A DNA stretch of 41,824 nt, taken from the NCBI GenBank assembly GCA_004431415.1, contig QPMI01000630.1, positions 1 through 41,824 of the forward strand, written 5' to 3'. The notes under the pieces are model-generated. The model did no database searches. It worked only from the letters and a program-made list of their open reading frames with translations, and was not told the origin of the DNA. The stretch comes from Cyanophora paradoxa CCMP329 (lineage: Eukaryota; Plantae; Glaucophyta). Position 1 is the stretch's first letter. Each line of letters starts with the position of its first letter. Of the stretch, positions 1,793 to 28,500 are shown in pieces. A program made the translations under genes and the position numbers.

Positions 1793-2275
1793 CTACGCGC
1801 GCTGCGGGACGGGCGGCCAGCTGTGAGAGCCGAGGGCGAGGGAGAGGGCGTCGTAGGCGAGCCAGAAGCCCTCCTGCGGCTCCGGGGGCGCCGCGAAGAG
1901 GGCCCGCGGCGCCATGCGCTCCTGCGCGCGCCGGGACGCGTTGCGGGTCGACCGGTGGAGACCGAAGAGGCGGGCGGCGTGGGGGCAGCGGCTGGGCTTC
2001 AGCGTCGCGGCCGCGAGCTCCCGTGCGTGCTCGCCGCCCAGAAACTGCCTCAGCTCCTTGGCGCTCAGACGCGACAGCGCCCTGACCATCCCCTCCGTCT
2101 CCAGGTCGACGTGCAGCACCTGCCAGGGCGCGATCCGCTCCGCGGCGCGACGGGACGCGGCGCGGGTCGACTTGCGGATGGCGACGATGGCGGCGACGGG
2201 GCAGCGGGTCACGGTCGCGGACGCGTCGTCCCCGGCCGCGGCGCGGGTCGCGACGCGAGCGGTGGTGCGGGGCAT
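1793..2275 (-). CDS. Hypothetical basic protein (~160 aa) with an internal repeat
   Basis: ATG at 2275 (MPRTTARV...) with TATAAAT ~52 bp upstream. Internal repeat IRKSTRAASRRAAERIAP / LHRSTRNASRRAQERMAP. Protein-like composition. Confidence 0.6.
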   Translation of the reverse strand: MPRTTARVATRAAAGDDASATVTRCPVAAIVAIRKSTRAASRRAAERIAPWQVLHVDLETEGMVRALSRLSAKELRQFLGGEHARELAAATLKPSRCPHAARLFGLHRSTRNASRRAQERMAPRALFAAPPEPQEGFWLAYDALSLALGSHSWPPVPQRA

Positions 2276-2333: not shown

Positions 2334-2724
2334 CCCCCCGAGGGGCAGGGCTCGGCCCGAATCCGGGCACCCCCCCCCTTTCCCCTCCCCCTCCTCTCCT
2401 CCCCCCCGTACCCCCCCATCCTGACCTGTTTCCCTCGCCCCCGCAGGTCCCTTTCGTCTCCGCGCCTGGGGCCCCGCCCCGCCCGCCGCCCACCCCCTCC
2501 ACTCCCCCCCTCCCCACCCTTCTCGCCCAGGTACCCCCTCCTCGCCCCCTCCCCCCCGCCTGGAGACTCGCCGCGCCCCCCGCAAACGTCCCCGCCCTCA
2601 CCCCCCCCCCGCCACGCAGGCCGAGGCCGCGGTGGGTACACGGATACGTTGCCGCTGCAGGAGCGGGGGGTACCCGCGCGGCTACCCCGGGCGCCCCCGG
2701 TCCGCGCGCCCCGCCCCTCTGCCC

Positions 2725-3366
2725 CTATCGACCGACGAGCTGAGCGTCCGGGCGCAGCGCCGATCGGGAGGGCGTCTCGGCGGACCGCGTGCACGGAAAG
2801 GAGAGGGAGGCGGGCGGCGGGGCCCCGAAGGACATCCAGTCGACGCTGGCGAATCGCCGCCGGAACGGTTCCGGCATGAAGCCCAGCGTCCCCTCGGCCT
2901 CGGCGGCGAGCCGCGCGGCGTACCCCGGGTCCTCCCGGGCGAGGCGGGCGTGCTCGGCGGCGGCAAAGTAGGCGCCTCCGACGGGGCACGGCGCGCGGCA
3001 CACGGGGCAGCTCGCCGCCCTCCAGCGGACCATGCAGCCGTAGCACATCACGTGACCGCACGCCTCGGAGACGGGCCGCGTCACCGGCTCGAGGCAGACG
3101 GGGCACTCGTCGGTCCAGCGGAGCGGCGACGGCGGCCCGGCGGCGCGGTTCTGGAAGCAGCGCCAGGCGATGCAGCAGGCGAGGCCAAAGTCGATGTGCC
3201 GCTCCCGCGCCGCCTCGTCCTCCTCGGGGTCGGCCCCGAGCGGCATCTCGATCGTCTCGAAGCGGATCCGGCCCTCGGGCGTCGTGCCCACCGCCAGCGC
3301 GCAGCGCGAGACCCCCCTCTCCCGATCGTACTCGATGAGCCGGTGCGCGGGTACCCCCGCCTGCAT
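2725..3366 (-). CDS. C3HC4 RING finger protein (putative E3 ubiquitin ligase), intronless
   Basis: CPVCLEPVTRPVSEACGHVMCYGCMVRWRAASCPVCR is a canonical C3HC4 RING; 213 aa ATG-started ORF. Confidence 0.85.
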   Translation of the reverse strand: MQAGVPAHRLIEYDRERGVSRCALAVGTTPEGRIRFETIEMPLGADPEEDEAARERHIDFGLACCIAWRCFQNRAAGPPSPLRWTDECPVCLEPVTRPVSEACGHVMCYGCMVRWRAASCPVCRAPCPVGGAYFAAAEHARLAREDPGYAARLAAEAEGTLGFMPEPFRRRFASVDWMSFGAPPPASLSFPCTRSAETPSRSALRPDAQLVGR

Positions 3367-3557: not shown

Positions 3558-6500
3558 ATGCCTCCCGTCGCGTCTCCCTCGTCGTCGCCGCCGTCGAGTC
3601 TCCCGCGCGCGTCGCCCCGAAACGGGAGCGCGCCGGCGGCGTCGCGCCCGGGCCCGGCCCCGCGTCGCGTCTCCACCTCCTCGGCCCGCCCCGTCGCAAT
3701 CGGCGAGGATGGGGCGGGGGCGTGGACGCGGCGGCTCGCGGGGCGGAGCCCATGGAGGTCGACGTCGCGCCGGCCGCCCCGCCGCGCCGCCGCCCGGTCC
3801 GGCTGGAGCCCACGCCCTCGTCAAGCCGGCCGTCCCGGCCTCCCGACCCCTTCAACAGCGCTGCGCCGCCGCCCCCTCCGCGACCTCGTCGACGCGGCGG
3901 CGCGGCGCGCCTTCTGCCAGGCCGCCTCCACCCTCGCCGTCCGCCGCCCCGACGGCTCCCAGACCGCCTGCGTCTACGCCGGATTCCTCGACTTTGACGC
4001 CGCCGCATCGCGCCCTCGAGAAGAAGGGCCTCGCCGCCAGGCCGCCCCGCTGCGCACCCTCGCCGAGCTCTTCGCCGCCGAGCCGCGCCTCCTGGAGCCG
4101 GCCGGACCGCGTACAGGCTCGCCAAGGCGTGCGGGGCGTACCCCCCGCGCCCGGCGAGCGCCGCTCGAGTGCCTCGTCACCTTCAGCGGCCTCAAGGCTT
4201 CCACGTCCTCCTCCGCACCCCGCCCTGCTCGTCCGGGCCCCCGGGGCGCGCGTCAAGGCGACGGCCAGGTGGAGCCGCGGCGGCCGCGGCGGCCGGCCTA
4301 CTCCGTGGACGACCTCCTGGAGACGGCGCTCGTACCCCTGCTCCGCAGGCTGCCGGCCTCTCCGAGAGGACGTGCTCGGCATCGTGGCGGCGATCGACAG
4401 GTCCCGCTCAACCCCAACTGCGGCCTCCGCCTCGACGAGTACCCCCACCCGCTCACGGGCGGTACCCCGTCGCCGTCTCGGCCCCGACTCGACGCCCTGA
4501 TCGAGCCCGACGCGAGGCGGCGGAGCGGTCCTCATCGCCGGCGACGGCCCCGCCCGGAGATCTCGGCCTTTCTCTCCGGCCTCTTCGCCGACCTGGAGCG
4601 GCGCGTGGGACGGAGAGGCCGTGCCGCCCTCCCGCCCTCCCGAGGCCCGAGCGCCCCGCGCGAGGGCGCGGCGCGAGCAGGAAGCGTCGGCGGGACGGGA
4701 GCCCGGCCCGGGGCGGCGCCGGCAGCGCGCCCGAGCCCTGCGCCGGCCCTGGAGCTCGCCCCGCACCATCGCGATCGGCGGGCGCGCCCGCAAGGTCCGA
4801 CTCGTGGGCGCTCGGAGGACGGGCGCTACGTCACGTTTCGCGTCAGCCCGCGGCGGCAGCGCGCCCGTGCCACCTCGGCGTCGAGCACGACTGGCGCGGA
4901 CCCTCTGCTCGGTCTCGCAGCTCCTCCCGGGGCGAGCATGGTGCGTTCCGGTGCGGGGCCAGAACACTCGGACTGCGCCCGGCGCCCCGTCTTTGGCGCC
5001 CGTCTGGACGGGCGCGGGCGACCCGGCCGAGGAGCGGCGACGACGCGGCCCTCGTGGCCTCGCGAGTGCCTCTCGAGCATCGCGGACGGGGCGCGCGGCG
5101 GCGCGCCGCCCGCCGCCGCACCCTCCCGTACCCCTTCTCCGTCGTCCCCCGCACCAACGACCGCGTCTACTCTGTCGACGCGCCCTGCGCCGAGTGCGGC
5201 GGGGCGCGCGGGGCGTGCTCGTCGACGTTCTGGCGCGCGAGGTCAAGGCGTTCCCGTGCGCCGGCTGCAAGCGGCGAGCCCCGAGGGCGCACCCGTCGCC
5301 TCGACCTCCTCCCGAGCTGGGCTCGGAGCTGCGCGCCGCGGAGGACGCCGTGCAGCGCGCCTCGTCGCGCGGGCGCTGGAGGCGAACGGGGCCCCGCATC
5401 GCGCTCTTCGGCCGCGGCCGAAGGGCTGGCTGGAGGCCCTCCGCCCCTCGGCGGGCAGCCGGGGAGCAGCTCGTCGCGATCATCGAGGTGCTGCGCCAGC
5501 GGGTCGTGGCCAAGGACTGTCGGCGAGCCGATCCGCCGCGGGCTCGTGCCGGAGCGGCGCGGAAGGCGCTGGACGCGCTCCGCTCCCGACCTGCGCGAGC
5601 CCCTCGGCGGCCCGCGGCGGGGGCTTCGACTGGCGTGACATCGTCCACGACGCCAACGACCTCGGCGACCCGCGGCGCCGGTGGTGGACAAGGCGGTCGA
5701 GGGGCGCTCCGCGGCCGGCCACGCGGCGAGGCATGCTCTTCCTCCGGGCGCAGACGGGTACGGGCAAGTCGCAGGCGATCGTCCACCTCCTCGCCGAGAT
5801 GCGCAAGTCCCCGCCGCGTACGGCCTGCCCCAGCACTTCAGGATCCTCTACGTCGTCGCGGGCGGATCCACGACGAGCTCCTCCTGGCGGACACGCGCTA
5901 CACGGCGATCTGCGCGGTGCGTGGACCTCGTACAAGGAGATGACGCCGGGGCAGCTGGCGCAGGCGAGCGCGCAGCTCATGTCGACCGTCGAGTCGATCC
6001 AGCGCCTCGAGGGCGCCTTCCAGGTCGTCGTCGTGGACGAGGGGGCCAAGGCGCTGGCCACGCTGGCCCTCTCGACGACGCTGGCCAAGGAGGGGCGCCA
6101 CAGCGCGGCGGTCGCGCGATTCAGAAGCCTGTTCGCCAGGCGCACCGCCTCGTCATCGCCGACGCGACCTCTCCCAGCCCGACGTCGACTTCTACGTCGG
6201 CCTCTTCCTCGGGGCCGCGCGGCGCGGCGGGGCGCGGGGCCCGGAGCCCTTCGTGGTGCAGTACCTGCACCGCTCCGCGAGCACGCGCGGCGCGCTCCTC
6301 CTCCCTGGATGTACGCCCCGCTCCTCGTCGCGGCGCACCTCCTGGCCGGCAAGCGCGTCGTCCTCTCCGCCGACGACCGCCGCGCCCTCTTCGCCACCCT
6401 CGCCTCCTCCACGCCCACCCGCCTCCGCGCGCGGTCGAGGCCGGCCGCCTGAGCTCGCTCTTCATCTACGCCGACGCGCCCAACGCGGAGAAGGAGAAGC

Positions 6501-8942
6501 TCAAGGAGAAGGCGCTCGTCGGGCGCTCGACCTCTTCGCCTACAACTCGGCCGTACCCCAGGCAGCGACTTTAACGAGGGCGCTTCGACGTCTGCATCGT
6601 GGCGATGGCGGGCGACGTACGACGTGAACGGGCGGGCAGGCATGGCGCGCGTGCGCTCTGTCGCGGAGCCGGACGTCTTCGTGTGCGCGGGCGCGAGCCG
6701 CGGAGAGGCGCCCTGGGGCCCTGGGGCGACGGTCGGCGCGTCGAGGCCGTCTACGAGCGGCGCCTCGAGGAGGAGCGCGAGATGCGGGGCGGGTCGAGGG
6801 CGACCGCGCCGCTCCCCGGGCCGACCTCGCCTTCCTCCGCATGCAGGCGGCCCGCCTCGTCGTCCTGAACTGGAGCCGCAGCGCACCGTCCAGGCCCTCG
6901 ACGCCAAGTTCGGGAAGATGGGGTACGCGCGCGGCCTGGAGCTCGTCGAGAAGGCCGAGCCGCTCCCAAGTCCGTCGCCTCGCTCCTGAACGCCTCGCCG
7001 CGCGCGTGCGCTCGGCGGCGATCTACGCCCCGTGGCCGCCGCCGCCACCCTCGGGAGAGGACCCCGACGGCGCCATCGTGGAGAGCATGCTGGCCGGAGG
7101 CGCCGGCGGCGCTGGGTCGGTGGCCCGTGACCGAGGCGGAGAGGCTCGCGTGCCGGAAGCGCTTCGTGGCCGGCGCCCTCCGCATCGACCCCGCCGACGT
7201 CAGCCTCGCGGAGTCGAGGCGCACGCCAAGGAGACGCCGCCTCCTCCGCCCCCTGATCCGCCTTTGGCGCCGCCGCCGGCCCTTCCTCGCCGACCGCGAC
7301 GGCGGGGGCGGTCTACGGAGCACGGGGGGTACGGCTCCTGCGGGGCGCGTGGACAAGCAGCACACGCGGCGGAGCGCCCTCGCCTCCTCGCCCTGGCGGC
7401 GGCCCGGCCCCGCGGGCCCGCGGCCCGGCCGCCCGGCGCCCTCGTCGTCGAGAAGCTCTCGCCCCTCGGGCTCCTCGACTCGTTCGCGCCGGACGCCTGC
7501 CCGCGGCGGACCTCGCTCGCCTCGCGGCGCGGTGGAGCGGGACCGGCTCTTCGAGCACGCGACCCGGCGGACTTTGTGGTCGGGGCGGGCCTGCTCCAGC
7601 AGGCCGACCGGGCCGACGCGCCGCGTGCAGGGCGTACCGCGCGCGCGCCCAGGAGCTCTTCGATCTGGCCAAGGAACCGACGCTGGAGGTGCCGTGGGAA
7701 GCACTTTCTCCGACTCCTGAAGCGGGCGGCCATCTGGGCGGGCGTACCCTCAAGCCGCCGTCTTCGCGGGCCCCCGAAGCGCCGACAGGTCGGCGGGCGG
7801 CGGGTGACCCAGAGGGCGGCGTCGAGGGCGGATTCGTGTGGACTACCTCGCCCTCGCCTTTGTTACCTGCGCCACGCCAAGACCGAGTACGCGTCCCGGC
7901 GGCTCTTCGAGGCGTCGAACCCGGAGCCGAGGCGGCGCGGCGCGCGGAGGAGGAGAGGAGGGGAGGAGAGGGCGCGCTCCGGCGGGACGGCGAGGAGGGG
8001 AGGGGCGGGCGAGGGCGGCCGGCGGGGGGAGGAGACGGACGTGGCGGACGGCCTCGATCGGGCGAGCGAGGGCGGGACGAGACGCGGAGCCGACCGGGAG
8101 GCCATCGAGCGCTCCTCGCGGGGCCGCCCGGGGGAGCGCGCCCCCTCCCGCCCGTCACGTACCCGAGCCGGAGGAGGCGCGGGCGCGCGCCGGTGGACCG
8201 CCACGGGCCCGCCTCTTCTTCTCCGCGATGAACCTGACGGCCGTCGCCATGAGCGCGATCGTCGAGCTGGGCGGCCGCTGCCGCAGCGCAGCCCCTGCGC
8301 GAGCGCGCCGAGCTCCACCCCTCTGTCTGGTACGGCCGGCGCGCGCGCTGGCGCGGAGCCCAACGAGCTGCTCGGCGGCTCCTGGGATGGGGGGGCGAGG
8401 AGCGATCCGCGCGGCGGCGGCGCGCGTGCACGCGGCCCTGCTGGACTCGTGCGACGCGGAGGAGAGGGCGGGCGCCGAGTCCGAGGCGGAGCGCGGGTGA
8501 CGCCGGCGGCGCTCGAGGAGCTCCTCCGCGCCCTCTGCGAGCGGGCCGCCGAGGCGGAGGCGCGCTCCGCGGCGGATCCCGGCGTCGACGAGGAGGACGC
8601 GCGCTGGTTCGTGGGGCGCCTGGCCGAGGCCTGGCGCGCCGGCGCGGGGACGCGCTCCGACCCCGCCAGTTCACCAAGAAGGAGCTCAACGGATCTTCAA
8701 GCCCAAGACCCGACGAGCGGGAGGAGCTCCCCGTGACGCTCCGGGGGCTCCCGAACAAGGTCGCCGTCATCAAGCCCGGCAACAGCAGCGGTCCGGCCTC
8801 GGCCTCGTCGCCGACTGGCTCGAGAGGCGCGGGGCGCCGTCCCTCCGCATCCAGCTCGAGTGGCGCGCCCGCCCCAAGGGAAGGAGCTCACGGGGATCGC
8901 CGTCCCCGCGCCCTCTTTGCTCACTTCGGATTCGACAGCTAG
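3558..8942 (+). pseudogene. AEP primase fused to UL9/replication-origin-binding-protein-type SF2 helicase (multiply frameshifted in this assembly)
   Basis: AEP motif I GFLDFD (3981-3998), motif II FSGLK/GFHV across a frameshift (~4182-4207), motif III region LRLDEYPHPLTG (~4425-4460). CxxC pairs at ~5185-5270. Walker A AQTGTGKS (5748-5771), STVESIQRL, Walker B VVVVDE (6024-6041), VIADAT (~6152-6169), LDLFAYNSAVPQGxDFNE and MARVR (~6642), as in OBP/UL9-like helicases. Coding-like fragments continue to a stop at 8942; the 3' end is uncertain. Confidence 0.8.
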
Positions 8943-10972: not shown

Positions 10973-11008
<36 letters not shown>

Positions 11009-11672: not shown

Positions 11673-13540
11673 ATCGAGCCTGGCCCCTCCCCCTCCCCGT
11701 CCCCGCCGGCACATGTTGGTCGAGTTTTGCTCGTTCAAGTTGTATTGGATCGCGAGGTCGCTCATATGCATTTTCAATGCAGATGCGCGGGAGGGCGCCT
11801 GGGGGGATAGGGAGGAGGGGGGGGGGGTCGGCGGCGGGTACACGCGGATGCTGCGAGGCGAGAGGCCTCGGCCTAGGGCGGGCCCCTCGGGGTGAGCGGG
11901 CGAGTCTCCCGTGTGGAAATTCCGGAGGGTCTCTCGATCGGGGCGCGACCGGGTCCTGGAGAGGGGCGGGCGACCGCCGTCTCCCGCCGCGCCGCCGCCC
12001 CGTGCGGCGAGCCGCGCCGCCGCCAGCCCCGCCCGCCGAACCGCGCCGCCGCCGGCCGAGCCCCAGCCCCGCCCGTCGAGCCGCGCCGACGCCCGCCACG
12101 TCCCCGCCCCGCCCGTCGAGCCGAGCTGCAGTCAGCCAAGCCCCCGCCCCGTGCAGCGATGCCCCATAGATGGGCCGCTCACCAGGCGTTCGGTGTACAT
12201 GCATGGCTCAACCACCTGCGCACGCACGGGTCAACCGATGAGGCAGCCGGGGCACAGGGCACCCAAAAGCGCACGAAATAAGGCCCTTGAACCCTGTGTC
12301 CCTCGGCAGCGTAAAGTCTATGCCGGCTGCGGCGCACGCGACGGCTGCGGCGCCGGCGCACGCGACGGCTGCGGTCGATCGTCGCCGGCGCGGAGCTGGA
12401 CAGGCGGGAGATCTCGCGCAGCGTGCAGCTGCTCACGAGCTTCCAGGGAGCAGTATGCCCACGCTCCGAGCTTCAACGTGCCTCGATTCGAGCGCCCCGA
12501 GAGCACACGCGTACGCCGCCCAGGAGATCCAGAGGCCCGCGTAGCTGGCCGGAGTACTGCGCATGCATCGCTCAGCACCCCGGCCCCATGTCGCTGAGCA
12601 CGTACAGCCACTCCTGCTCACGCACATTTCCTTCGGCATCTGAAGGGACTTGCCACCCAGACGCAGCGGCCGCCGGGAGCGGGCTGCAGGCAGAGCTGGA
12701 GCTAGCTATCGACAACGCTTGACGAAAGCTCAGCGCTAGCCCCGTGCTCACGGCCGCCGCGAGAACTGCAATGTGTATCCCCCATCCTCTCACCCTCCCC
12801 CCCCCAGAAAAAAACAAAAACTCCTGCACTATTGATATCTAGATCTACCGGTATTTGAAATTGGCACCCTGGCCCGCAGGCCGCCCCCACCCCCCCACCC
12901 CACCCTAACATCCAAAGGCTATAGCAGCCGGACTCGAGCTCGTGCAAACGACGTTGGGCTGATCGCGAGGCCGGCCGGCCGCGATTATGAAATTGCGCCC
13001 CAAATTAAATTGCGCGCGCGACTGCGGCCCTCAAGAGGGACGAGGCGATATATATGTGTGCATTACAGCTTCATTTGGATAGCCACTGCGCCTGGCCTGT
13101 CGGTCGCGATCTCTCTCATGAGAATCACGTGCACTGTCATGCAGCGAGACGGCGCAATGATTCATTATTCAAGCATGCGCATGCGTGTATGCATGCTCGT
13201 AAAAATGCGCAATATGAATCGATCTTTTTTTAAACATGAAGCTCGCGACTCGAATTCCGGATCCGTCGACACGTGCACGGATGTGCGCGTTGAGTGCGCG
13301 CGACGTGAACATTTCCACGGCCCGGCCTGGTTCGGCGAATTTTGAAACTCTCAGGCTCTACGTCGTTCAAGACAATTTAGAACGGAGAACTGACGGATAT
13401 TAATTCGAGATGCGGATATATATGTATATATATCGATCGAAATTAAATTCGACAACGTGCGAATTAAACGATATCGGTATACGTATCGATTTCGATGGAT
13501 GGCCGTCGACTGCGCGCTAAATAGCTGGATATAGAGTGCA

Positions 13541-14389
13541 TTACGACTCTGAGCCGGCGGCGGCCTCTGTCTCGACCTGAATCGAGCACGCGCATGCGCA
13601 CGTGCCTTCGATCTTGCGGACATCGGGCCCGTTCCCGCAGGAGGGGGCCGAAAATTCCGCGCCTAGCGCTGTCATCACCTTTAATTTCTTTGCGAGGCCC
13701 CCGTTTCGTGCACGATCCTCGAGGAGCAGTTTAAACGCCTTGGCGACGGTTTCGTTCGGAAACCCGTGTGCCACCGCCCGAATCTTGATCGGTCCGCGGG
13801 CCATCTCGAAGAGGCCGGAGCCGCGCAGCTCGGCAAACTTGCGCTTGAGGTTGGACGAGCAGCCGACAAAGGCGGGGAGCTGCCTGGCGCCGCCCATGAC
13901 GAACACGACGGGCTGCTTGGGTCCGAATTTGTCCGAGAGCTCCACCGGGGCGGGCTTTGCGTTTGGGTCCCGAACGTGAACGGCCCTGTTCGGCGCCGGC
14001 GCCGAGGACGCTGCGTCGCGACCCGCGGCCGCGTCGACGTCGCCGGCCGCCTCGCCCTCGCGATCCTGCCCCTCTGCCCGCGGGCGCGCGCCTGCGCCCG
14101 GAATCGCGACGCAGGTCGACGTCGGGGCCGGGGATCCGGAGGCGGCTGCGTTCGAATCCGGCGCCTCCGAGCGCGAATCGCGCTCGCGATCGCTGTCGGC
14201 CGCAGCGCCCTGCACCGAAATCGATAGCGATGGGTTCGGCGCGGGAGATTTCGGAGGTGACGACGGCGCTTCCCGACATCGATCGGGATCCTGATCGATA
14301 TCGTGATCGTGGTCGGCGGCGGGGCCCGATCGCTTCGAATTCGGGCTCGACGTCGACATCCCCTCTAGCGCCTCGAGCTTCGGGGGCAT
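13541..14389 (-). CDS. GIY-YIG (SLX1-like) domain protein, divergent and probably catalytically inactive; long low-complexity N-terminus
   Basis: VVFVMGG..PAFVGCSSNLKRKFAELRG...RGPIKIRAVAHGFPNETVAKAFK parallels the SLX1-type pattern VYLL..YVG.T.D..RRL.QHNG...RPW.....GFP....AL.FE. Intronless, ATG at 14389. Confidence 0.6.
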   Translation of the reverse strand: MPPKLEALEGMSTSSPNSKRSGPAADHDHDIDQDPDRCREAPSSPPKSPAPNPSLSISVQGAAADSDRERDSRSEAPDSNAAASGSPAPTSTCVAIPGAGARPRAEGQDREGEAAGDVDAAAGRDAASSAPAPNRAVHVRDPNAKPAPVELSDKFGPKQPVVFVMGGARQLPAFVGCSSNLKRKFAELRGSGLFEMARGPIKIRAVAHGFPNETVAKAFKLLLEDRARNGGLAKKLKVMTALGAEFSAPSCGNGPDVRKIEGTCACACSIQVETEAAAGSES

Positions 14390-14769
14390 GGTGCTTCTAT
14401 TTATCCGCGCCCAGGCCCTCACACTCTTGAGGGCGGCTTTGTTTTCGGCCGACGTGCGCTGCGGGCGGCCCCGAGGTTTACGAGTATGTATATGTGCGTA
14501 TGCGGGGAGAATTCGAATCGAACTGCAGCGCTAGCTGGGATCCGGATCGGGCCTGCGTCGACGTTCCGTCGACCTAGGCCTCCCGCCCGCCGTTGCCCGC
14601 GTCTCCCGCGCGGACTGCTTTATAAGCGAGCGCATGCACGGCCCGGGCCCGGGGGGACCGGGCGGGGGCGGGGGTGCACGTGCCGAGGCGGCGGGCGGGG
14701 TGCGTGACCCGCGAGTCGCCCTCCCCTCTGGACGTTGGCCGTACCCCTCCTCCTCCCCTCCCCGGGCCC

Positions 14770-16400
14770 CCCTCCGGAGACTCGCCGCCACCCCCCTCTG
14801 GAGGGAGCGGCGCTCGCGCGTCGTCCGCAAGGCGAACGAGTGAAAGGGAGGGAGGGTGCCGCGCCGCAAGAGGCAGGGGGTAGAAGAGTTTCCGGGGCGC
14901 CATGCGCCCCCGCGCCGATGGACCAGGCCTAGGGGCGCCGAAGCTCGTTCTGGGCGTCGGGCGAGTCTCCAGGGGGAGGGGGGGGGCCGCCGGGGGTACG
15001 GCTCGGAGCTTTCGCGCCGCTCTCTCTCGGGGGCGGCGGCGAGTTTCGAAGGGGGGGGGGGGAGCTTGAGGGGGGTAGCTGGGGTACGAGCGAGATTCTA
15101 GCGCCGCCCTCTGTCGGGGCGGCGGCGAGTCTCCCGGGGGGTGAAACGAGGGGGTACGTGGGGTACGGTCGAGATTCGAGAGTCGTTTGCTTCGAGGGGT
15201 GGCGGCGAGTCTCCAGGGGGGGAGGGGGAGGTAGGTGGGGTACGGTCAGAGATTCAGCGCCACCCTCTTTCGGGGCGGCGGCGAGTCTCCAGGGGGGAGG
15301 GGAGATAGCTCGGGGTACGGTCAGAGATTCAGCGCCACCCTCTTTCGGGGCGGCGGCGAGTCTCCAGGGGGGTGGGACGAGGGGCACGTGGGGGTACGGG
15401 AGAAATTATAGAGCTGTTCGCTTCGAGGGGTGGAGGCGAGTCTCCAGGGGGGAGGGGGAGGTAGGTGGGGGTACGGTCAGAGATTTAGGCGGCGCGGCTC
15501 TGGATCTCTCTCGGGGGCGGCGGCGAGTCTCCGGGGGGTGGACGAAGGTACGTGGGGGTATGGCCGAGATTATGGAGCAGTTCGCTTTGAGGGGTGGCGG
15601 TGAGTCTCCAGAAGGTAGGAGGAGGCCACCGAAAACTCGCCGCGCCCCCCTCAGGGACCCGTTGCACGGGCGTGAGAAGCCAAGGGTGAGCGAGCTCGAG
15701 GAGAAGGCCGGTCCCGTACCCCGTCTCCCAACCTGGACCCCGCTGGAAACTCGCCACGCCCCCCTCAGGGGCCGGCTGCACGAGCGTGAGAAGCCGAGGG
15801 GGAGCGAGGGAAAGGCCGGTCCCGTACCGGGACCCCATCTCCCAAACCTGCCCCCCGCCGCTGGAAACGCGCCGCGCGCCCCTCAGGGGCCGGCTGCACG
15901 AGCGTGAGAAACCGAGGGGGAGCGAGGGAAAGGTCGGTCCCGTACCCCGTCTCCCAAACCTGCCTCTGCCGCTGGAAACTCGCCACGCGCCCCTCGGGGG
16001 CCGGCTGCACGGGCATGAGAAACTTTAAGCCGAGGGCGAGCGAGGGAAGGGCGGACCCGTACCCCGTCTACAAACCCGCCCCTGCCGCTGGAAACTCGCC
16101 GCGCGCCCCTCAGGGGCCCGCTGCACGGGCGCGAGAATTCGGAGCCGAGGGCGAGCGAGGAGAAGACCACCACCCCCTCCCCCCTGGAGACTCGCCGGCT
16201 CCCCCCTCTGAGAGAGCGGTGCTCGAGATTTGATCGTACCCTCACCAACCCCCGCCCCCCGCCCCCTGGGAGACTCGCCGGCTCCCCCTCGGAGAGAGCG
16301 GCACTCGCGCGTCGTCCGTACCCCCGCCGAATGGAAGATGAAACCCCGCCTCCCGCCCCCCTGGAGACTCGCCGCCGACCCCCTCTGAGAGAGCGGCGCT
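14770..16400. repeat. Polarity-switching array of GGA(A/G)ACTCGCC-containing degenerate repeats
   Basis: One forward copy at ~14776. Then ~9 reverse copies at ~76-87 bp spacing (14960-15610), each followed by GGGGTA(C/T)G except the last. Then ~8 forward copies (15631-16373), the first five at ~115 bp spacing. Confidence 0.85.
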
Positions 16401-16410
16401 CGGGATACGC

Positions 16411-16422
16411 AATATATATAAG
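16411..16422 (+). promoter_or_regulatory. TATA-like element upstream of the TFIIB-like gene
   Basis: AATATATATAAG directly after the motif array; further TATAAA at ~16513 and CATAAAT at ~16651. Confidence 0.35.
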
Positions 16423-16710
16423 GAATGCGAGAGGTCTAGATCGCAGAGGGACCGGAGCGTGCGGCCAGAGCACCTTCAGGTGATCGCGGTCAGGGCTCAG
16501 ATTTCGAAACGATATAAAGGAACGCGCGCGCGCGCGCCTCTATCTCTGCGCACACGGATCCGGGCCGGGCGGGCACTCACGACCACGATCCATAGATTGC
16601 GATCGATCGAAACTGGGTTCGCCCCCAAGATTCGTGATCGCGATCGGCGGCATAAATTTCAGACCGCTTTCACAGAGCCCTCAGTCCCCACACCGCGACC
16701 GAAAACGATC

Positions 16711-17630
16711 ATGAGCAGTTGCGTCCACCCTTACGTCGCGTCCGGGGCCGAGGGCGACGTGTGCACGTCCTGCGGCATGTGCCTCGACGCGTACGGGTCG
16801 TACGCGACGCCCCTGGGCCTCGTCTGCGACGAGCAGGGCGGCGCCGGCGTCGCGTCCTCGCACGATCGATATCTGCAACTGGGGCTGGATCTGCTACGCG
16901 ATATTCCAGAGCCGGCGCCGCGCACGTGCACGTGGCAGCCTTCCAAGTCTAGTTCTGCGCGCGCAATCCCGAGCTCGAGCGCGCACGGTACCCACGCGAA
17001 TATGAATCGCACGGAGCTGGATCAGACTGTGAGGGAGACGGCAGAGCGCATGCTCCTCCGGAGATTGTCTGGCGCGAGGCCCTGGAAACGCTCCGCGAGA
17101 AGCGCGCCGTGATCTCGGGAGGCGGTACACATCCCTCGCCCTCGCGGCCCTCTATCTGGCCGTCCAACAGCTCGATATCCCTCGTGGGATACACGATTTC
17201 GAGCACGCGGCCCCTCCCGAGGCGCGCCACGAGGTCCGAAAGTACGTTCGCGTCCTCTTGGAGGCGACGCCGGCGCCGGCGCCGGCCGCGGGGCCCCCCG
17301 CGGGCGATCGGCGCGAGGGCCGTCGCCTTCACACGTACGACTTGGGCGTGTCCCTCGTGGAAAGCGTCGGAAAGAATATTGGAATCGACGGTTCGATCAT
17401 CTCGGCCGCCCAGAAGCGCTACAGAGAGTACCTGGAGGCGGGACGAGCTCGTTCCAGGACCCGAAGATCCTAGCGATAGGGGCGCTCGCGCTCGCGGCCA
17501 AGCTCTCCGGACGCGCTTCCTGGTCCACGCGAAAAATCGCGATTCGAGCCGGGCCTCTCCGACCGCCGCGCGCGCTGCGGTCAGGGAGATGAGGGCACGG
17601 CTCGGGATAGACCTAGATCTAGACCCGTAA
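16711..17630 (+). pseudogene. Transcription initiation factor TFIIB-like protein (Zn ribbon plus two cyclin repeats), intronless, about 4 frameshifts
   Basis: N-terminal CVH...GDVCTSCGMCLD zinc ribbon. Repeat 1 across frames: TVRETAERM.PEIVWREALETLRE..GRRYTSLALAALYLAVQQLDIPRGIHDF (cf. GR...AIAAACLYIACRQE.VPRT..EI). Repeat 2: LVESVGKNIGIDGSIISAAQKRY...SR.PKILAIGALALAAKLSG...STRKIAIRAG.SPTAARAAVREM. Confidence 0.85.
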
Positions 17631-18234
17631 TCAAGTGCTAGAACTCGATCGATATCCAGATCTAGCTCGAAATTGACTTTGTCATGTGAATATTTGTATA
17701 CGTAGCCTGGATGATTTTCCGCAGAAACTTGAAATATCGCTAGCCATGATATCGATCATGATCATGAATTTGAATATAGATTAATATATTCATCTGGAGC
17801 AGATCCTAGCTATAGTTATGACGAGTCAGTTGAATAAACAAATCTAAAGCTCACGATGAAGACTCTGAGATGAAAACTACGATATGCATATGGCAGCGCA
17901 TCTGCAGCGATCGCGATACATGTATACCGTACAGGCATGATTATGGACAGAGGGACGCGCCTAAAAGGACGCGCCGGCCCGCGCCTCATGGCATGTACAC
18001 GGTCAGCCCTCTCCGCAGAAATTCGAATCCGTGACCATCGAGGTGGACGACGCCTAGCTATAGCTCCTTGAGAGTATAGTTGAACATCGCAGGCCTATAG
18101 CTAGGTGCGCGCGCACCGGCTGCGAAATTTTCAGACGTCTCACGGGGGATTCGAAAATTCGTATTCACAGCCCAGGCCATGTCCACGCACACTCATATTG
18201 CCTAGACCATCGCAGCGCGTCCGACGGTCGAGGC

Positions 18235-20688
18235 ATGGCATCTGCAAACTCGCCCCCCAGCCGCGATCGCGATCGCGATCGCGATGAAGAGAAAGATCTA
18301 GATCCGGGTTCCGGATCCGGAGCGAGCGCGAGGGGGCGGTTGCTGCCCTCGCCGAGCTCGGGGGGCGGGTCCAGGCCCCCTTTCGACTCCCGCCCCGCCA
18401 AAGTCCAACTTCCAGCGTACCTGAGCGTGGGGAGGGACCCGGCCCTCGCCTTTCGCCCCTCGTGCGCGCGATGCCAGGTCGAGCGGGTCCCACCCCCATC
18501 GTACATGCTTCCCTGCGCCGTCTCGCGCATCTTGGACCGCACCGGGGCCTCGAGCTTGAACGGATCGCTCGAGGCGCACCCCCGCCCCACGTTCGAGGAC
18601 CTCCGAAGCTGCTCAGGAAAAGCCTGCATCTGCGTCACCTGCGCGATCAATCTGGTGGCCGCGGCCGCGGCCGCCCCCGCCCCCGCCCCCGTGTTCAAGT
18701 GCCCCGCCTGCGGGGAGGACCACCGCGCGCCGGACGAGCTCCTGAGCTCGTCCCGTATCGACGCCTACCTCGCCTACGCGTCCTTTATCGAGGACGGAAA
18801 CAACCCGCAGGCCTGGATCGCCTCCGAAATTATCGGGAGGCAGGCGCTGGCCTCGGTGTTTGAGCACGTGGCCCACCTGGCGCTGGAGGCGGCGCGGGCA
18901 AAGGAGACCCCGCGATCCCGATCGCGAGCGCTGCCCCGCCCCCCCGGGCCCGGCCGGCCCCCCGGCCTCGACGTTGACGTTGGCGCCGGCGCCGGCGTCG
19001 ACGTCCGCGGCAGCGCGAGCCGGACCCGGCACGTCGCGCCCGGACACCGACCCCGCAGCCGGAGAGGGTCCGAGCGGCCCGTCGGAAGGGAACCCGGCGC
19101 CGGCGCCGCCCGGGCCCGGTACCGCGGCCGGTGCGGGCTCGAGTTCGAAAAAGGGCAAGGAGCCGGCCCTGCACGCGCAGGCGCCCGCGGCCGCCCCGGC
19201 CTCCCCGCCGGCAGAGGGCGATCGCGAGAGCGAGGCCAAGGGCGAGGCCGGCGCCGGCGCCGGGGCGAGCGCCAGGGCGGGCCCGGGGCTCCGAAAGCGC
19301 CCCGATCGCGAGGGGCAGGTCCCCTCGGGCGCGACGCAGGCGGGCACCCCCCAGGAGGGGGGCCCCTCCAGGGCGAAGCGCCAGCGGAGCAAGTGGGGCT
19401 CGGGGAGGACGGAGCGCAAGCCCTACGAGAGCGACAAGCTGGTCAAGGTCCTCTACACGGCCTACACGTACCCCGCCGAGCTCGATCGCGACGCGGATGG
19501 GCCAGAGGACGGGGCAGGGGCGCCGGCAGAGGGTTCGAGCTCGCGCTCGGGCTCGGGCTCGGAGCTCGGCGATCCCGCCCCCGGTCCGTCCGCGGCCGGC
19601 CGTGGCCCGGCGGGCGCCGGGCCCTCTGCGGGCCCCTCTGATTCCGGCAAACGCAAGCCTCCGAATTCTCCGGCTGCCGCGGCCGCCGCCGCCGGCTCCG
19701 ATTCCGGATCCGGGAAATCTCAGAGTCCGACGCGGGCTCCCGCGCCGGGAGTCCGGATCCGCGCGATGCGGAGCTGGCCGAGGCGTGGAGCAAGGCCTAC
19801 GCGGCGGCCGTCCGGTTGGACTCGGAGGCGTCGTCCGAGCGCGACGGGGGGGAGGCCGCGGGGGGGGACGAGCTCGAGAGCGCGGGGAGCGCCTCGCAGG
19901 AGGGGCAGGAGGAGGATCCGGAGAGCCTCCCGCCTACGAAAAGGGGCTGGCCGTGGGCGTGGACGTCGCCCTCGTCGGCCGCCGCCTCGACGCGAATCCG
20001 CAGGCCCGGGCGGCTCTGCTCGAACGCGTTCAGAACCTGGGGCGGGAGAGAATTCGGGCGCTCGTCCTCGTCGCCGCCGCGGTCCTCGGGGCGTACGAAA
20101 AGTACAGGTGGGCGCGCGGGATTTCTGTCCATTCTTTCTGCCCGCGCAGGCGGCCGATGGGGCGGGTGCGGGGCGCAGGACTCGCACGGGAACAATCGAA
20201 AATTGTGGGGTACTGGAGAAAGGAGCACATCGAGACAAAGTACAACTCGATTCTCGGTTCGTTTAAATTTCGCGAGCTCGGGGCGCCGGCGGCGCTCCTG
20301 TTGCGCGTGGCCGTGGGGCCGGACTCCCCCCCGCTGACCCTGCAAGCGTGCACCCGTTTGCGCAGAGGCGGTGGGATTCCGGCTCGAGCTCCCGGCACAG
20401 AGAACCGAGATTTACACCGATCTCAAGAATCTGGCAGAGACGATGCGCAGATTCCCCGGCCTCTGCCGGGTCTCTGGGTCCGGCATCAGTCCGATCGACT
20501 TTCTGTCGACCGTACCCCTGCTCAAAACCGCCGACGCCGAGGGCGCGAAGCGCGTCGCTGCGCGGGTGAGCGACGAGGTCCGCCGCGCCAAGGGGTACGC
20601 GTTCGACGAGTCGGTGCTCGAGCTGGGGGCCCTGCAGCCGGCGGCGAGGAGGGGAGGGCGACGCGTCATCCTCGGAGGCGGGGGGTAG
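18235..20688 (+). pseudogene. Large frameshifted ORF with N-terminal RING-like Zn finger, low-complexity linker and unknown helical C-terminal domain
   Basis: CARC...LPC...ICVTC...FKCPAC pattern at ~18460-18715. Coding continues through frames 18860.., 19816.., 19131.. and 20371..20688 (e.g. TEIYTDLKNLAETMRRFPGLCRV). Confidence 0.5.
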
Positions 20689-21246: not shown

Positions 21247-21798
21247 TTGCCGGGAGGGTTCAGAGGGGTCCGAGTCGGGGACGGGGACCGGGTGGCGGCG
21301 CCGGCGGCTCCGGCGCCTGGCCATGCATATGGGCCCTGCTTCGCGGCGCGCTGCGCCCCGGACGGCGAGCGGGTCGATCTCTGCGACGCCCTCGTGCGGC
21401 AATCCATCCTGCTGGCGTCCCTGTCCGAGTGCAGCGACGTCGGCCTGGGCGGCGCGCTCGAGGCCACGCCCGTCGATCTGCCGGCGACGGCGGACACCGT
21501 GAGGCTCGCCAACGCGGCGGCGTCGGGCGCCTGGCCGCCCGATCCAGTCCCGCTGCCCCTCTATTTCTCGCTCATCGACCTGCTCCAATTTTTGGACGCT
21601 TATGCGGGCCCGCTCGGCCTCCAGGTCGTAGGGCGGGCCGCGGCCGAGGCGTCCCGGATCGACATCAAGACGCTCCTGCGCGCCCTGGACGCGCGCTGGG
21701 CTCCGCCCGAGCCCGCCCCGGCGCCCGCGACCGCGGGGCCCCCGGCCCGCGCTCGCGCAAGCGACCCAGGTCTCCGATCGCGAACCCAGCAGATCTAG
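21247..21798 (+). CDS. SKP1/POZ-like protein (divergent); start codon uncertain
   Basis: DGERVDLCDALVRQSILLASL...TPVDLPATADTVRL...LYFSLIDLLQFLDA...LQVVGRAAAE parallels SKP1 SDGE.FEV...VA.QS.TIK.M...PIPLPNV....L...LFELILAANYLDI..LLD..CK.VA. Confidence 0.65.
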   Translation: MPGGFRGVRVGDGDRVAAPAAPAPGHAYGPCFAARCAPDGERVDLCDALVRQSILLASLSECSDVGLGGALEATPVDLPATADTVRLANAAASGAWPPDPVPLPLYFSLIDLLQFLDAYAGPLGLQVVGRAAAEASRIDIKTLLRALDARWAPPEPAPAPATAGPPARARASDPGLRSRTQQI

Positions 21799-21939: not shown

Positions 21940-22692
21940 CACGAGTCTCCCAGAGGGAGAAGAAGGGGGTACAGGCCAAGAGGGAGGGGGAAGTATCAGG
22001 GGGGGGAATTCGTGGCGGTGGGGAGGGGGCGAACGGTTGCAAGGGGGTACAGGCGGTCTCGCATGGGGTTCTGGATCTTCTAACGGGGGCGAGGCGAGTT
22101 TCCAAAAGGCGGGCAGGGCGTGTGTGAAGGGGTACAGCGCGCGACTCGAAGCGTCTCCCCCTAGAGGGGGCGTGGCGAGTTTCCAGAGGGGGGGGGGGGT
22201 AGGGGGTACAAGGGGGAATTCGAGCGCGACCACAATGCAGACTAGGATCGCTCCCTCCATCCCTTGGAACAGGAACCCTTCCGGGGGCGAACGGTTGCAA
22301 GGGGGGTACAGGCGGTCTCGCATGGGGTTCTGGATCTTCTAACGGGGGCGAGGCGAGTTTCCAAAAGGCGGGGCAGGGGCGTGTGAAGGGGTACAGCGCG
22401 CGACTCGAAGCGTCTCCCCCTAGAGGGGGGCGTGGCGAGTTTCCAGAGGGGGGGTAGGGGGTACAAGGGGAATTCGAAGGCCTCGCCGCACCCCTAGCTA
22501 TAGGAGGGCCGGGGCGAGTTTCCAGAAGGCTCGGAGTGGGTGTGCGGGCGCCCTCGAAATTAAAGGTACATCCTCTGGGGTGGACGTGGTGAGTTTCCAG
22601 GGGGCGAGGCGTGAGGAAGTAAGGGGTGGAGATTTCGAAGGTTAGCACCCTCTTTATCCAGCTATAGCTGGGGGAGCACGGCGAGTTTCCAG
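21940..22692 (-). repeat. Reverse-oriented GGAAACTCGCC motif block including a ~200 bp direct duplication
   Basis: About 8 GGCGAGTTTCC-like copies; 22026-22222 is repeated at 22283-22476. Confidence 0.85.
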
Positions 22693-22780
22693 AGAACGCG
22701 CGCAGGCGCGGGAGATCTTTGCGGGCCGTGACACCTAGAACTCACCGTCTCGCTCATACTATGATATCCCGCGTCTCGGC

Positions 22781-23385
22781 CCCCAGCTGGAAACTCGCCC
22801 CGCTCCCCCTCAGAGCCCTCCGCCCCTTGCTGGAAACTCGCCCCGCTCCCCTCAGAGCCCCCGCCCCCCAGCTGGAAACTCGCCCCGCTCCCCCTCAGAG
22901 CCCTCCCGCCCCCCAGCTGGAAACTCGCCCCGCTCCCCCTCAGAGCCCTCCCGCCCCCCAGCTGGAAACTCGCCCCGCTCCCCCTCAGAGCCCTCCCGCC
23001 CCCCAACTGGAAACTCGCCCCGCCCCCCCTTAGAGCCCTCCCGCCGCAGCTGGAAACTCGCCCCGCTCCCCCTCAGAGCCCTCCCGCCCCCCAGCTGGAA
23101 ACTCGCCCCGCCCCCCCTCAGAGCCCCCCCGCCGCAGCTGGAAACTCGCCCCGCCCCCCTCAGAGCCCCCCGCCGCAGCTGGAAACTCGCCCCGCCCCCC
23201 CTCAGAGCCCTCCGCCCCCCAGCTGGAAACTCGCCCCGCCCCCCCTCAGAGCCCTCCCGCCCCCCAGCTGGAAACTCGCCCCGCTCCCCCTCAGAGCCCC
23301 CCCGCCGCAGCTGGAAACTCGCCCCGCTCCCCTCAGAGCCCTCCCGCCCCCAGCTGGAAACTCGCCCCGCTCCCCTCAGAGCCCG
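22781..23385 (+). repeat. Tandem minisatellite, ~42-46 bp unit x14 (CAGCTGGAAACTCGCCCCGCTCCCCCTCAGAGCCCTCCCGCCCC)
   Basis: 14 forward GGAAACTCGCC copies counted; units differ mainly in C-run length. Confidence 0.95.
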
Positions 23386-23917: not shown

Positions 23918-24986
23918 TTACATGTCGCCCCGGAGCCGGCGGGTAAACTGAATGTCCTGCCCGGGGATTTGAGCGGCCCGTGGATTTGAGCGGCCCGTGG
24001 GGGTGGCGGCCCGGGGCGCGGGGCGATGGGCGCGGGGCGCGGGGCCGGGCCCACCTTGGGCTGGATCGTGATCCGCTTGGCGTGGATGGCGGCGAGGTTC
24101 GCGTCATCGAGACGGTTCACGAGAAACTGCGCCCGCAGTCAGGTCAGGCGGGCGCCCGGGGAGCGAAGGGGCGGGGAAGGAGCGGGCGCGCACGGCCTCG
24201 GCGGCCTCGCGGAGGCACTCGATGGCCTCGCGGCGCCAGCGCAGCTCGATATTACCCTCGCCTTCGGCCGCCTTCTTCTCCTTCATGACGTCCTGCCCGA
24301 TCTCCCTGACCTGCGGCCCGTGACGCGGGGGGCCGGGCGACCGGAGCGGGCCGGCGCACGAGGCGGGCAAAGCCGGCGTAGCTGATGAGCGCGTTCGTGG
24401 TCTGCACGGTGGCGGTGAGCCGTCTCGGCCGCTCGTACGGCGGGGGCGCGCGCGGAGCCGACGTGCCTTCTGGTACTTGCGGATCTACGGGAGGAGGGAA
24501 CTGTCCGTCGGGCACGAGCGAGGGGATCGAGAGAGGCGAGGCGCACCTCGCGAAGTGCCACGGTGCCTTTCAAGACGCCCCGCCAGGTCGCCGGACCGGC
24601 GCACGCGTCAGGAATCAGCGGCGGGGGCGGGGCGGCGGGCCCGGGGGGCGCGTGGGGCGGCAGGGAAACGACCGGGGCGGTAGCGGTGAGGCTTCTTGAC
24701 CTGGTGACGATGACCAAGGTGAGCAGAGGCCGGCGCGTGTGCGCGGCCCACGGCTAGCAGTGGCCCCGGGATCCCACGCACCCCGCCGGCCGCGGGCGCG
24801 CTCTTGCGGGCGGCCTTGCTCGAGAGATTCTTCTTGGCGGGCGCGTCCGCGAAGCGCTTGCGAGGAGCCTTCTCTCCCGTGCCCTTCTGACCCTGCGAGC
24901 ACGACGACGTCGTACGCATCGGCGGCGCCGGCGCGCGGCGGGACGGCGGCCGGGAGAGAGCTCACGGTGTGCTTCACCCTGGCCAT
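23918..24986 (-). CDS. Divergent histone H3 variant (CenH3 candidate), 9 exons, ~155 aa
   Basis: Exons 24966-24986, 24782-24892, 24673-24700, 24547-24566, 24467-24484, 24360-24401, 24194-24310, 24055-24126 and 23918-23956 splice to [155 protein letters not shown]. Confidence 0.92.
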
Positions 24987-25264: not shown

Positions 25265-25507
25265 CTAGGACCCCCAGGGCCGTTGATAGCCGCGGGCACG
25301 CGGCCCGAATCCGATTTCGCGGTCGCCGCCCCGGCAGGCATCGATTCCCATACAAGGGCACCGGGGTACGGGCGGGACCGAAACTTCGATCCGCTGGGCA
25401 CCCACCTCCAAATCGGCACCCTCGCCACCGATTTACTGCTAAATATCACGCTTAGTGCGGATCCACGGATCCTCGTTTATCAAGCAAAACGGATTTCAAA
25501 AAGCGTA

Positions 25508-28500
25508 ATGGCACCCGCTTGCCGTCGCCCTACGGTGCTGTACGGGCCTGTCCGGATCCCTCTCTGCTTGGGGCGCCTCTGGGCCTAGCCAACTGCTTAG
25601 CGCATCCCGCTCAGCGCACCCGCACACGCGTAACGCAGCGTACACTGGAGGCGGGCCTGCGCCAATACTTCTCCAGCGCATGGCTGTTCTCGATTCAGCG
25701 CGTCTACTGCGATCCAAGCGACTCGCCTGCACCGAATGCCGCTCTCAGTCGCCCAAACTTTGCTGCCGGCAGCTGCAGCGTTCTCTCGGCTCTCAGCGAC
25801 ATGGAGCGTGCAGCTGTCTCCATGCGGGCAACGGTGCAGAAGGACGTCGAAGACAGCAGGCGCCAGCTGGGCTCCGTTAAGCAGAGAGTTTCCGCCCTTT
25901 ACTCGGAGGAGGTTCGGAAAGCGGAGAAGGCGCTTCTCTCCGCAGGCGCCATCGCCCTTCTCCCCCGCCAGGCGCTCGCAGAGTTCGACTGGTCCGCGCT
26001 CGAGGATCCGGAGGCTCCAAAGAATGCGGAAACCGCTTCGAACTCCATCAAGCGGGCGCACTCTGTTTTGCTGAAGATCCGCGAGAGAAAATCGCTGCAG
26101 GAGGGCGTGGTGAGCTTTTTTGTCCACGTGCTCCCTTCATTTCCGCCTTTTGATTGTGTGAGCGCGCGCAGCTTATGATGGCGACAAATCTTGGCGTGCG
26201 GCTGGGTGATAAGACAGTTCGTCTTGTGAAGGACGCCTTCTGGAAGCTGGTGCGCCTTTTCTGTGCGTAGGATCTGTGTGAGCCGGCTGGCCATGGAGCA
26301 CGCTTTGCCTCACACGGCACCTGCACAGGACCTGGCGGTGAGGGCGCTGGAGCGGGCGCTGGAGGCGAGGAGCGCGGCGAAGGCAGAGGCGGCGGTGGAG
26401 GCCGTCCGGGCCGCCCTGACCGGCTCCAGCGCTGCGAAGGAGCCCGCGGCCGCGGCCGGGCCCAGTGCGTGCAAGGCAGCCGAAGTGGAATACGACGTGT
26501 ACGACTCTCTTGCCCGCGTCGTTGCCGAGCACAGGCGGCTCACGCTCGGATGGCCAGCTGATCATGAAGTGGTGCGCTTGACGTGCACGGAGCCAGTGTG
26601 CCCGCCATCTGACCCTCGCGATCGCGGCAGAAAGACGAGCAGGCTGGAATGCTGGTCACCCTCCGCAGGCGCCTACGAGATGCAGTGGCAGAAAAAGTTG
26701 CTTCCCTGCAAGCGAAATTTTCCAGTTTTGTGCGCTGCAAAGCTGCCCGCAATCGCTCGATTGATCATGAAGTACGCGCCAGCTGCGTTGTGTTCACGTC
26801 TGACAGCGCCGGGACCGCAGGCCGACTTCAAGGCCACGGCGGCCTTCTCGGACCTCGGCGAAAAGAAGCGTCGCGCGCTGGAGAAGGCGTGCGAGGCGGG
26901 GCGCCGCGAGGCGTCTGGCGCCGCCGCCCGCCTGGCGGCCCTGGAGGCCGGGGGGGCCGATCCCGCTGGCAATCAGTACCTGCAAGCCATCGAGGAGGCG
27001 GCGGACTGGGTCGCACGGAACGGGAAGCCGACCCTGACGCCGGTGTTCGAGCGCTTTGCGAGCAGCCGGGTCGCGCAGCGGGCGACTCCCCGGCCCTTCC
27101 TGCATCGCCTGGAGATGGCCCTCCGCGCTGCCGCCAGCGGCTCCCCGGCCTCGACTCAGCTTCCTCCCGCTTTCGCCGCCCTCGCGGAGGCGATCGCCGC
27201 GGGCGTCCTGCCGAAAACCCTCGCAGCGGCCCGCCAGATGTCGAAGGTGCAGGCTGCGCTTCCCTGCCATCTCTCCGTCTGTGCCTGATGCATATGTCGA
27301 TCGACCTCCTCTGGGGCAGAACACGTACTGCCTGGCGATGATGCTCGAGCACGTCGTGGGGGAGAAGGCGATGGCGCAGGTGCGGGAGAGCATCGCGGAC
27401 CTGGCCGTGCCCGTGCGCACCGCTCCCTGTCGCCGCCGCAGCGCCTGGCGCCGCCCACTCCGCTGCAGGAGCGCAAGGAGGCCGCCCTCGGAGCGCTGCG
27501 CGCCCTGCTCGACGCAAGCGCAGGCACGGCCGTGGACGCTGTCTCCGGCGGGGGAAAGGCCTCCGCGGACGGGGATCGGGCGCTCGCCCGCGCTGCAGGA
27601 CCGGCGCTGCCCGCCGATGGCAGCGCGTCGACGTCCTCTGCAACCGCTGCGGCTGCGCCCGAACTGCCGACCGCGGCCGCAGCTGCAGCCCCCGCCTCGA
27701 CGTCCGACGCGGCTGCAGCAGCCTCTTCGAGCTTGGCTTCGAGCTCGACAGCGTCGGCGGGCGAGGACCTGCAGATGGGCAGCCGTGCGAAGGACAAGAA
27801 GAACGCGAAGCACGCAGCGGCGGCGAACCTTCCGCCCCAGTCGAGTGCGGTGGCGGAAGCTAGCCCGGCCGCGAGCCGCTGGCCGTGGCGGGAGCTCCCT
27901 GCGTGGGACCCGCGCGGCCCCGACGAGGGCGCTCTGGACGACGACCTGGGCGACCACTTCGACGAGGTGCTCGCGATCAGTATTGCAGTCGCAGTCCACT
28001 CGAGAGTCCCTGATGCAAAGTCCGGGTTCAGCACAGCTTCGAGGGCGCCGGCGGGCGGCACGGGCCCCCGCGCTTTCACGACGACTGCCCCATCTGCGCC
28101 ATCGACCGCCTGGACGGCCCGCGGCGGGACTCCGGGCCGATGCGGCGCATCATCGCATCCATCGCGAAAAAGCCCGTGCGCCTGGGATCTGGATCGAGAT
28201 CTGCGCCCCGTCGCCGGCCCGCGACCCCAACACGGACACTCACCCGCGCGCGATCGCGGCCGGCAGCACGGGCCCTTCGAGGAGCATCTCTGCTTCGTGA
28301 TCTCCGTGCTGCAGCGCGCGACCAGGCAGCAGTCCGAGTCGACTGCGCGCCTCCTGCTGGACCTCGGCATGGCGGACGCTCTGCGGCACATCGCCCTCTC
28401 CCGCCACAGCTTCGTCGCCTTCTACGTGCGCCCCCCGGCTCCGGCCACCGCGCCCGCGACTCTAGCAGAGAAATAGGCTGCCGCCCCGCTCCCGCCTTGC

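Follow-up and report, generated by a model that had tools for sequence, protein, structure and literature searches.

Arrays of a conserved 11-bp site in a repeated, possibly virus-derived element of Cyanophora paradoxa

Iteron-type plasmid origins consist of helically phased direct repeats, next to the rep gene and an AT-rich unwinding element. Baculovirus hrs lie at several loci per genome as runs of repeats that share one core, and are candidate origins as well as enhancers according to the available text of PMC4535591. The boxes of HSV-1 oriS, the system of UL9, are inverted, non-palindromic and two or three in number, and in the substrate sequences given in the accessible parts of PMC13483431 and PMC13458718 they face inward across an AT spacer. 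An architecture that joins an AEP primase to an SF2 helicase has been described for SmDNAV, mimivirus R8, ASFV pF1055L and some mriyaviruses, and the available text of the same sources names no binding site or origin for primase–helicases of the AEP–UL9 type, which belong to large DNA viruses that depend on the nucleus (10.64898/2026.08.29.747986, PMC11253617). The yeast 2-micron plasmid, a selfish replicon, combines tandem STB repeats and Rep1/Rep2 with Cse4, a centromeric-type histone that it borrows from its host (accessible parts of PMC2064333 and PMC6344848). Giant-virus inserts have been reported in Cyanophora paradoxa, at loci that are unnamed in the available text (PMC12344493), and the strings virus, viral, centromer and histone are absent from the main text of PMC6704402.

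Here we analyse a window of 41,824 nucleotides from Cyanophora paradoxa CCMP329 (contig QPMI01000630.1), in which a repeated element carries arrays of the 11-mer GGA(A/G)ACTCGCC (Table 1). Like the baculovirus hrs, these arrays are dispersed loci with a shared repeated core (three arrays, A1, A2 and A3, in 25.5 kb). Unlike the hrs, the element has a non-palindromic core, its symmetry comes from the orientation of the arms, its units differ between loci, and its host and genes are unrelated. The mean folding z of six array groups (−0.45 to +0.91) gives no sign of an imperfect palindromic core, and a hairpin or ssDNA signal in the array units was ruled out by the same values. With oriS the element shares inverted, non-palindromic boxes and a predicted UL9-type SF2 helicase, but it has 17–21 sites per array rather than two or three, no central AT spacer and the opposite polarity. 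In contrast to UL9, the helicase is fused to an AEP primase and has no detectable SAP-like tail.

The predicted domain order of this enzyme is that of the proteins of SmDNAV (Ariadnavirales), mimivirus R8, ASFV pF1055L and the mriyaviruses, and its weakly assigned TFIIB-like gene has a parallel in ariadnaviruses; a further likeness is that no DNA or RNA polymerase gene was seen in the 25.5 kb. Unlike the AEP–SF2 viruses, however, the element has no detected sequence similarity to them, contains introns and an H3 variant, and gave no match to a capsid, packaging ATPase, VLTF2/3 or HUH endonuclease in the frames scanned from the part seen; an integrase or polymerase gene was likewise not recognized there. 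Like the 2-micron plasmid, the element would be a selfish replicon on which tandem repeats accompany a histone of centromeric type, but here the histone gene sits on the element itself. Initiator-site arrays as such are known already. The literature that we searched contained neither this case nor one from its host lineage, nor such arrays combined with a CenH3-like gene. We found no description of this element there, and the figure and supplements of PMC12344493 may cover the region.

Table 1 Arrays, single sites and genes of the element, with positions in the window
Feature	Position	Strand	Remarks
Array A1	300..1684		153-bp tandem unit; 10 forward and 9 reverse sites, alternating
160-aa gene	1793..2275	-	Copies on two other contigs
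Lone composite site	2531..2572	+	GTACCC at 2531, 11-mer at 2562
RING-finger protein	2725..3366	-	PF13920, E 9.4e-8
Predicted AEP primase–Zn finger–SF2 (UL9-type) helicase (replicase)	3558..8900	+	End approximate; frameshifted in window
Lone site	11899..11909	-	Inside 1174-bp segment skipped by some short-read contigs
GIY-YIG-like protein, weak assignment	13541..14389	-	pLDDT 40; GIY-YIG domains rank 1, 6, 7 and 9, best E 0.71
Lone forward site	14776..14786	+	Unit family of A2 left arm; additional to the count in the earlier note
A2 left arm, 9 reverse sites	14960..15609	-	75–87 bp spacing
A2 centre	15610..15630		21-bp purine-rich spacer, not AT-rich
A2 inner right arm, 5 forward sites	15631..16100	+	111–118 bp units, separate unit family
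A2 outer right arm, 3 forward sites	16186..16373	+	83–96 bp spacing; inverted homologues of left arm
AT tract, A2 outer edge	16413..16422		Likely TATA-like promoter element
TFIIB-like gene, weak assignment, frameshifted in window	16711..17630	+	PF00382, E 0.17; Cys/His motif at start (sequence); indels in contig mapping
Long gene or genes	18235..20688	+	RING-like Cys cluster
Coding-like frame, start approximate	21300..21798	+	Reading frame
Array A3	22093..23366		7 reverse sites (about 80 bp), 98-bp centre, 14 forward sites (41–45 bp); between convergent genes
Intron-rich, spliced histone H3 variant, CenH3-like fold, H3-like tail	23918..24986	-	Contig mapping, alignment, PDB matches
Right junction	25503..25618		Element contigs end at 25503, then high-copy repeat, then low-depth host DNA

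With up to one mismatch allowed, the 11-mer occurs 64 times in the window against 4.77 expected, a count that none of 100 shuffles reached, and 57 of the 64 matches fall in the three arrays. The block at 14,770–16,400, which an earlier note on this DNA had presented as a divergently oriented array, is real and is one of three. All three lie in the 1–25.5 kb block and the host flank (25.6–41.8 kb, 16.2 kb) has no exact copy, which ties the motif to the element within this window; the two matches with one mismatch in the flank, at 31242 and 33045, are isolated. The repeat units of A1, A2 and A3 are different sequences, and the reverse-then-forward layout is common to A2 and A3 despite their different units.

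The proposal that the 11-mer is conserved independently of its context is borne out by the flanks, for which similarity z is −0.4 to 2.9 between unit families of different arrays versus 3.5–18.9 within families. Among 13 related units, conservation is 0.98 in the core columns and 0.70 in the flank columns, and the lone sites retain the full 11-mer. Because a core that stays almost fixed while its flanks diverge is the pattern to be expected of a selected binding site, these comparisons support the view that the 11-mer behaves as a protein-binding site under selection would, and it is very probably a functional binding site of some kind. An Rfam search of the arrays gave no matches. In searches for relatives of the array, two viral-contig scans returned 19 and 52 loci with one match each and a metagenome scan returned at least 119 stretches; of 190 loci, four carried the 11-mer three or four times, and comparison with four element proteins and with the window DNA gave no match.

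A2 has the flip in orientation that had been described, with nine reverse copies (seven exact, two with one mismatch) at 14960–15609 followed by eight forward copies (six exact, two with one mismatch) at 15631–16373. The reported difference between units of about 80 and about 115 bp holds for the five inner right units, which form the 111–118 bp family, but not for the three outer ones. Together with the copy at 14776, these outer units have inverted homology to the left arm (68–70% identity over about 230 bp; flank similarity z 3.4–3.9), so that, judged from alignment, A2 is an inverted repeat that has decayed, its inner right arm being occupied by a second unit family. The core of the 11-mer is kept, as claimed, although conservation extends beyond the 11 bp: a run of C lies 5–8 bp downstream of the A2 copies, and the word GTACCC stands 20–45 bp upstream in seven of nine left and five of eight right copies. 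The genes on either side (13541–14389, minus strand, and 16711 onward, plus strand) are divergent, as stated before. An AT tract was said to end the block; it is present at 16413–16422, but this TATATATA sequence falls beyond the array and has several counterparts, some of them positioned like TATA boxes. Short-read contigs cover both outer ends of A2, and none among the contigs listed spans its centre.

Several properties of A2 disagree with a single origin of the iteron type, as suggested earlier, or of the oriS type. The centres of A2 and A3 rank at the 81st and 87th percentiles of 100-bp duplex instability, neither being a melting hotspot, and the AT tract at the edge of A2 is only the seventh least stable 30-bp window in 1–25500; its TATATATA sequence resembles the other TATA-like sites. 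Spacings in A2 scatter over 0.5–10 modulo 10.5 and are therefore unphased; only the A3 forward arm comes near four turns. The replicase gene is about 6 kb away from A2 rather than adjoining it. If YTCGC is aligned, A2 has the opposite polarity to HSV oriS, and the likeness of this core to the UL9 box, which had been noted as possibly due to chance, amounts to four or five letters shared with Box I and falls short of a UL9 box sequence. A switch in GC skew had been anticipated at the centre. It is local only, running from plus to minus at the A2 and A3 centres, and comes from the richness of the units in C on the motif strand. When the arrays are left out, cumulative skew drops to −388 by 13 kb and thereafter wavers within the range −410 to −283, a course of no diagnostic value. 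With no melting centre, no phasing, the opposite polarity and no clear skew switch, a classical oriS or iteron origin is unsupported.

Outside the arrays, no hexamer of the element is enriched more strongly than GTACCC (38 seen, 4.7 expected). It is found 11 times in the replicase gene against 0.6 expected, and once in the host flank against 2.4 expected. Across 1740–25500, GTACCC(C) is eightfold enriched on both strands, coding sequence included, and is near-absent from the host flank. The word has no strand polarity; it stands 20–52 bp upstream of many array sites and accompanies none of the 14 A3 forward units. At a guess, it could serve as a priming or protein-coating signal. A 24-bp direct repeat with GTACCCC (25229–25264) lies upstream of the H3 variant gene.

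All three arrays belong to a block that measures at least 25.5 kb and has a read depth about two to four times that of the flank. Median long-contig depth over 1–25503 is 238, 386 and 58 in runs X1, X9 and X13 (from 12, 7 and 15 contig rows, leaving out the duplicated contig at 9.1–10.5 kb and the optional segment near 11 kb), and low-depth contigs have 74, 92–104 and 27, which gives ratios of 3.2, 3.7–4.2 and 2.1; contig depth is not copy number, and the baseline is two low-depth contigs. Near-identical models of the element genes occur on four Cyanophora paradoxa contigs. On tig00000526 they follow the gene order of the window, reversed. On tig00021741 the order is the GIY model g23281, the H3 variant g23284, six further models, g23291 (the gene at 1793–2275) and g23292 (the 5′ half of the replicase gene), which, from the gene numbers, keeps the orientation of the window and permutes its order. 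This permutation makes a head-to-tail joint of the element, tandem or circular, likely as far as gene numbers alone can indicate. At the right end, none of the contigs listed bridges the junction at 25503; positions 25504–25618 are a fragment of a high-copy repeat with a depth in the thousands, and the junction could be where the element inserted or a place where the assembly was joined.

The element encodes a predicted primase–UL9-type helicase, as the earlier note had it, on the strength of the motifs in one protein model and weak leads from the atlas. This model, P0011, comes from another copy and reads through motifs that we take to be AEP-like, a presumed Zn-finger-like Cys/His cluster and what we regard as SF2 motifs. 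Short-read contigs differ from the replicase gene of the window by over 100 small indels. For the helicase piece, Herpes_ori_bp is found on 25% and 16% of the members of two atlas clusters, at 0.92 and 0.90; for the primase piece, DNA_primase_S is found on 60% of one cluster at 0.90 (recognition 2227, weak). The top three atlas matches are mostly ResIII/DEAD clusters for the helicase piece and unnamed clusters for the primase piece. Pfam, PHROGs and PDB gave no significant match to P0011 and no sign of a DNA-binding tail, and a single-sequence fold model of the replicase was unusable (pLDDT 41). The only homologues found were copies from the same species, with none in viral contigs or phage records, in searches of which two scored about 8,000 candidates and another used the partly frameshifted N-terminal half. 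The fourth match of that N-terminal search, P0012, was an S-layer protein and was set aside as a chance match. Contigs of runs X21 and X24, guessed to be RNA, cover the replicase gene. Among the RNA contigs listed, none lies over 13500–20700, which says nothing about expression there. At 2757–3708, RNA-guessed contigs skip a plus-strand GT–AG intron (3343–3405) upstream of the replicase, which implies a spliced leader antisense to the RING gene.

We tentatively favour the possibility that the arrays are dispersed, baculovirus-hr-like clusters of binding sites in a virus-like element, bound by a protein of the element, most likely the predicted primase–helicase, as regions where replication starts. 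On this view the element would be a replicon of viral origin, in the form of a tandem insert or of a circle. From each centre, the many sites on both strands would load the helicase in the outward direction, with synthesis begun by the fused primase and extended by a host polymerase. A2 lies between divergent genes and A3 between convergent ones, and the arrays are therefore not tied to promoters. Against the replicase-origin reading stand the lack of an AT-rich unwinding element at the centre of A2 or A3, the unphased spacings, the polarity and the distance of A2 from the replicase gene, the missing database confirmation of the enzyme, and the failure to find outside relatives in which site and protein could be compared. 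A candidate site with 57 array copies and an apparently intact, transcribed predicted enzyme in a culturable alga make direct testing possible.

The arrays could alternatively be segregation sites, similar to a centromere, on a nuclear circle or mini-chromosome that loads its own CenH3-like histone, as 2-micron STB does with Cse4. We consider this unlikely, although the H3 variant gives it substance. The gene is part of the high-depth block, some 0.55 kb away from A3, and three near-identical models occur on three contigs. It is spliced: 143 nt left unplaced between two mapped pieces of an X24 contig correspond to two exons among three GT–AG introns. Measured against the features of CenH3 given in the available text of PMC4359364, loop 1 is extended (24 residues versus 13 in H3, 11 longer), Q is changed to A and F to W, and the T in helix 2 is replaced and that near the C terminus kept, the numbering in that source being ambiguous. 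The loop exon has Cnp1 as its sole PDB matches (E 0.04, weak). The N-terminal tail, however, aligns with canonical H3 except for a 9-residue insert and is thus not the highly divergent tail of a CenH3, and the best match of the whole protein is canonical H3. A literature search found no giant virus encoding CENP-A, which is weak evidence of absence.

Segregation would also agree with the 153-bp unit of A1 and with the permuted gene order on one contig. A low-depth contig (74, 104 and 27 in the three runs) matches the element at 18606, 20238–20258, 20530–20589, 24194–24249 and 24670 onward, in the same order and including the H3 variant, which suggests, from sequence matches, a diverged relative in the same genome with the same histone gene. 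These matches are just 21–56 nt each, and the window joins the block to host genes, which both speak against a segregating replicon. Should the H3 variant prove centromeric and load on the arrays, the element would itself supply the mark for its segregation.

It is similarly doubtful that the arrays are transcriptional enhancers at which a factor of the host or the element activates the divergent genes (GIY-like and TFIIB-like) and the leader of the replicase. A2 is flanked by TATA-like sites (14624 on the minus strand; 16413 and 16513 on the plus strand), the lone sites at 2562 and 14776 are 150–230 bp from such sites, and both roles, origin and enhancer, have been attributed to baculovirus hrs (available text of PMC4535591). 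A3, by contrast, lies between the 3′ ends of genes, and the lack of an exact site in the host flank argues against a common host factor, as far as 16 kb can tell. Rather improbable, in our estimate, is a compound reading in which a virus-derived nuclear replicon persists as a low-copy circle or tandem mini-chromosome with its own intron-bearing CenH3-like gene, the 11-bp arrays being a combined origin and self-made centromere and GTACCC a genome-wide word that includes coding regions.

That the arrays are subterminal repeats of nested modules with terminal inverted repeats, such as 15615–22740, or recombination junctions, seems very unlikely. This 7.1-kb module does have forward sites at its left and reverse sites at its right, and the inner A2 sites and all A3 sites carry the A variant at position 4 of the 11-mer, but the inner A2 and A3 units have no inverted homology (z 1.7), no transposase was matched and depth is even across the modules of the element. 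The terminal inverted repeats, target duplication and transposase of a TIR transposon were not found, only the right end of the element being visible. Neutral satellite expansions of one ancestral seed, without present function, would suit the homogenized A1 and A3 forward arm (about 90% matches) and the decayed A2 inverted repeat, but are highly improbable given a near-invariant core beside flanks that fall to 0.70 within a family and near background between families, and a full 11-mer at the lone sites.

Apart from the preferred reading of the arrays as replication start regions, the window has structural features of its own. A tandem duplication occupies 8899–10525 (8899–9465 is like 9954–10525), and there three 150-bp copies of a replicase segment (6469–6677) are inserted into a small gene, an arrangement also present in P0011. 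The 1174-bp segment at 10955–12128 is skipped by X1 and X13 contigs and has a 4-bp overlap at its ends and lower depth; it holds a piece of an intron-bearing host-like gene as well as the lone site at 11899. The host flank is a GC-rich eukaryotic gene region with a MYND-finger gene (29300–30708) and a truncated multi-exon VPS13 gene (31552–41824).
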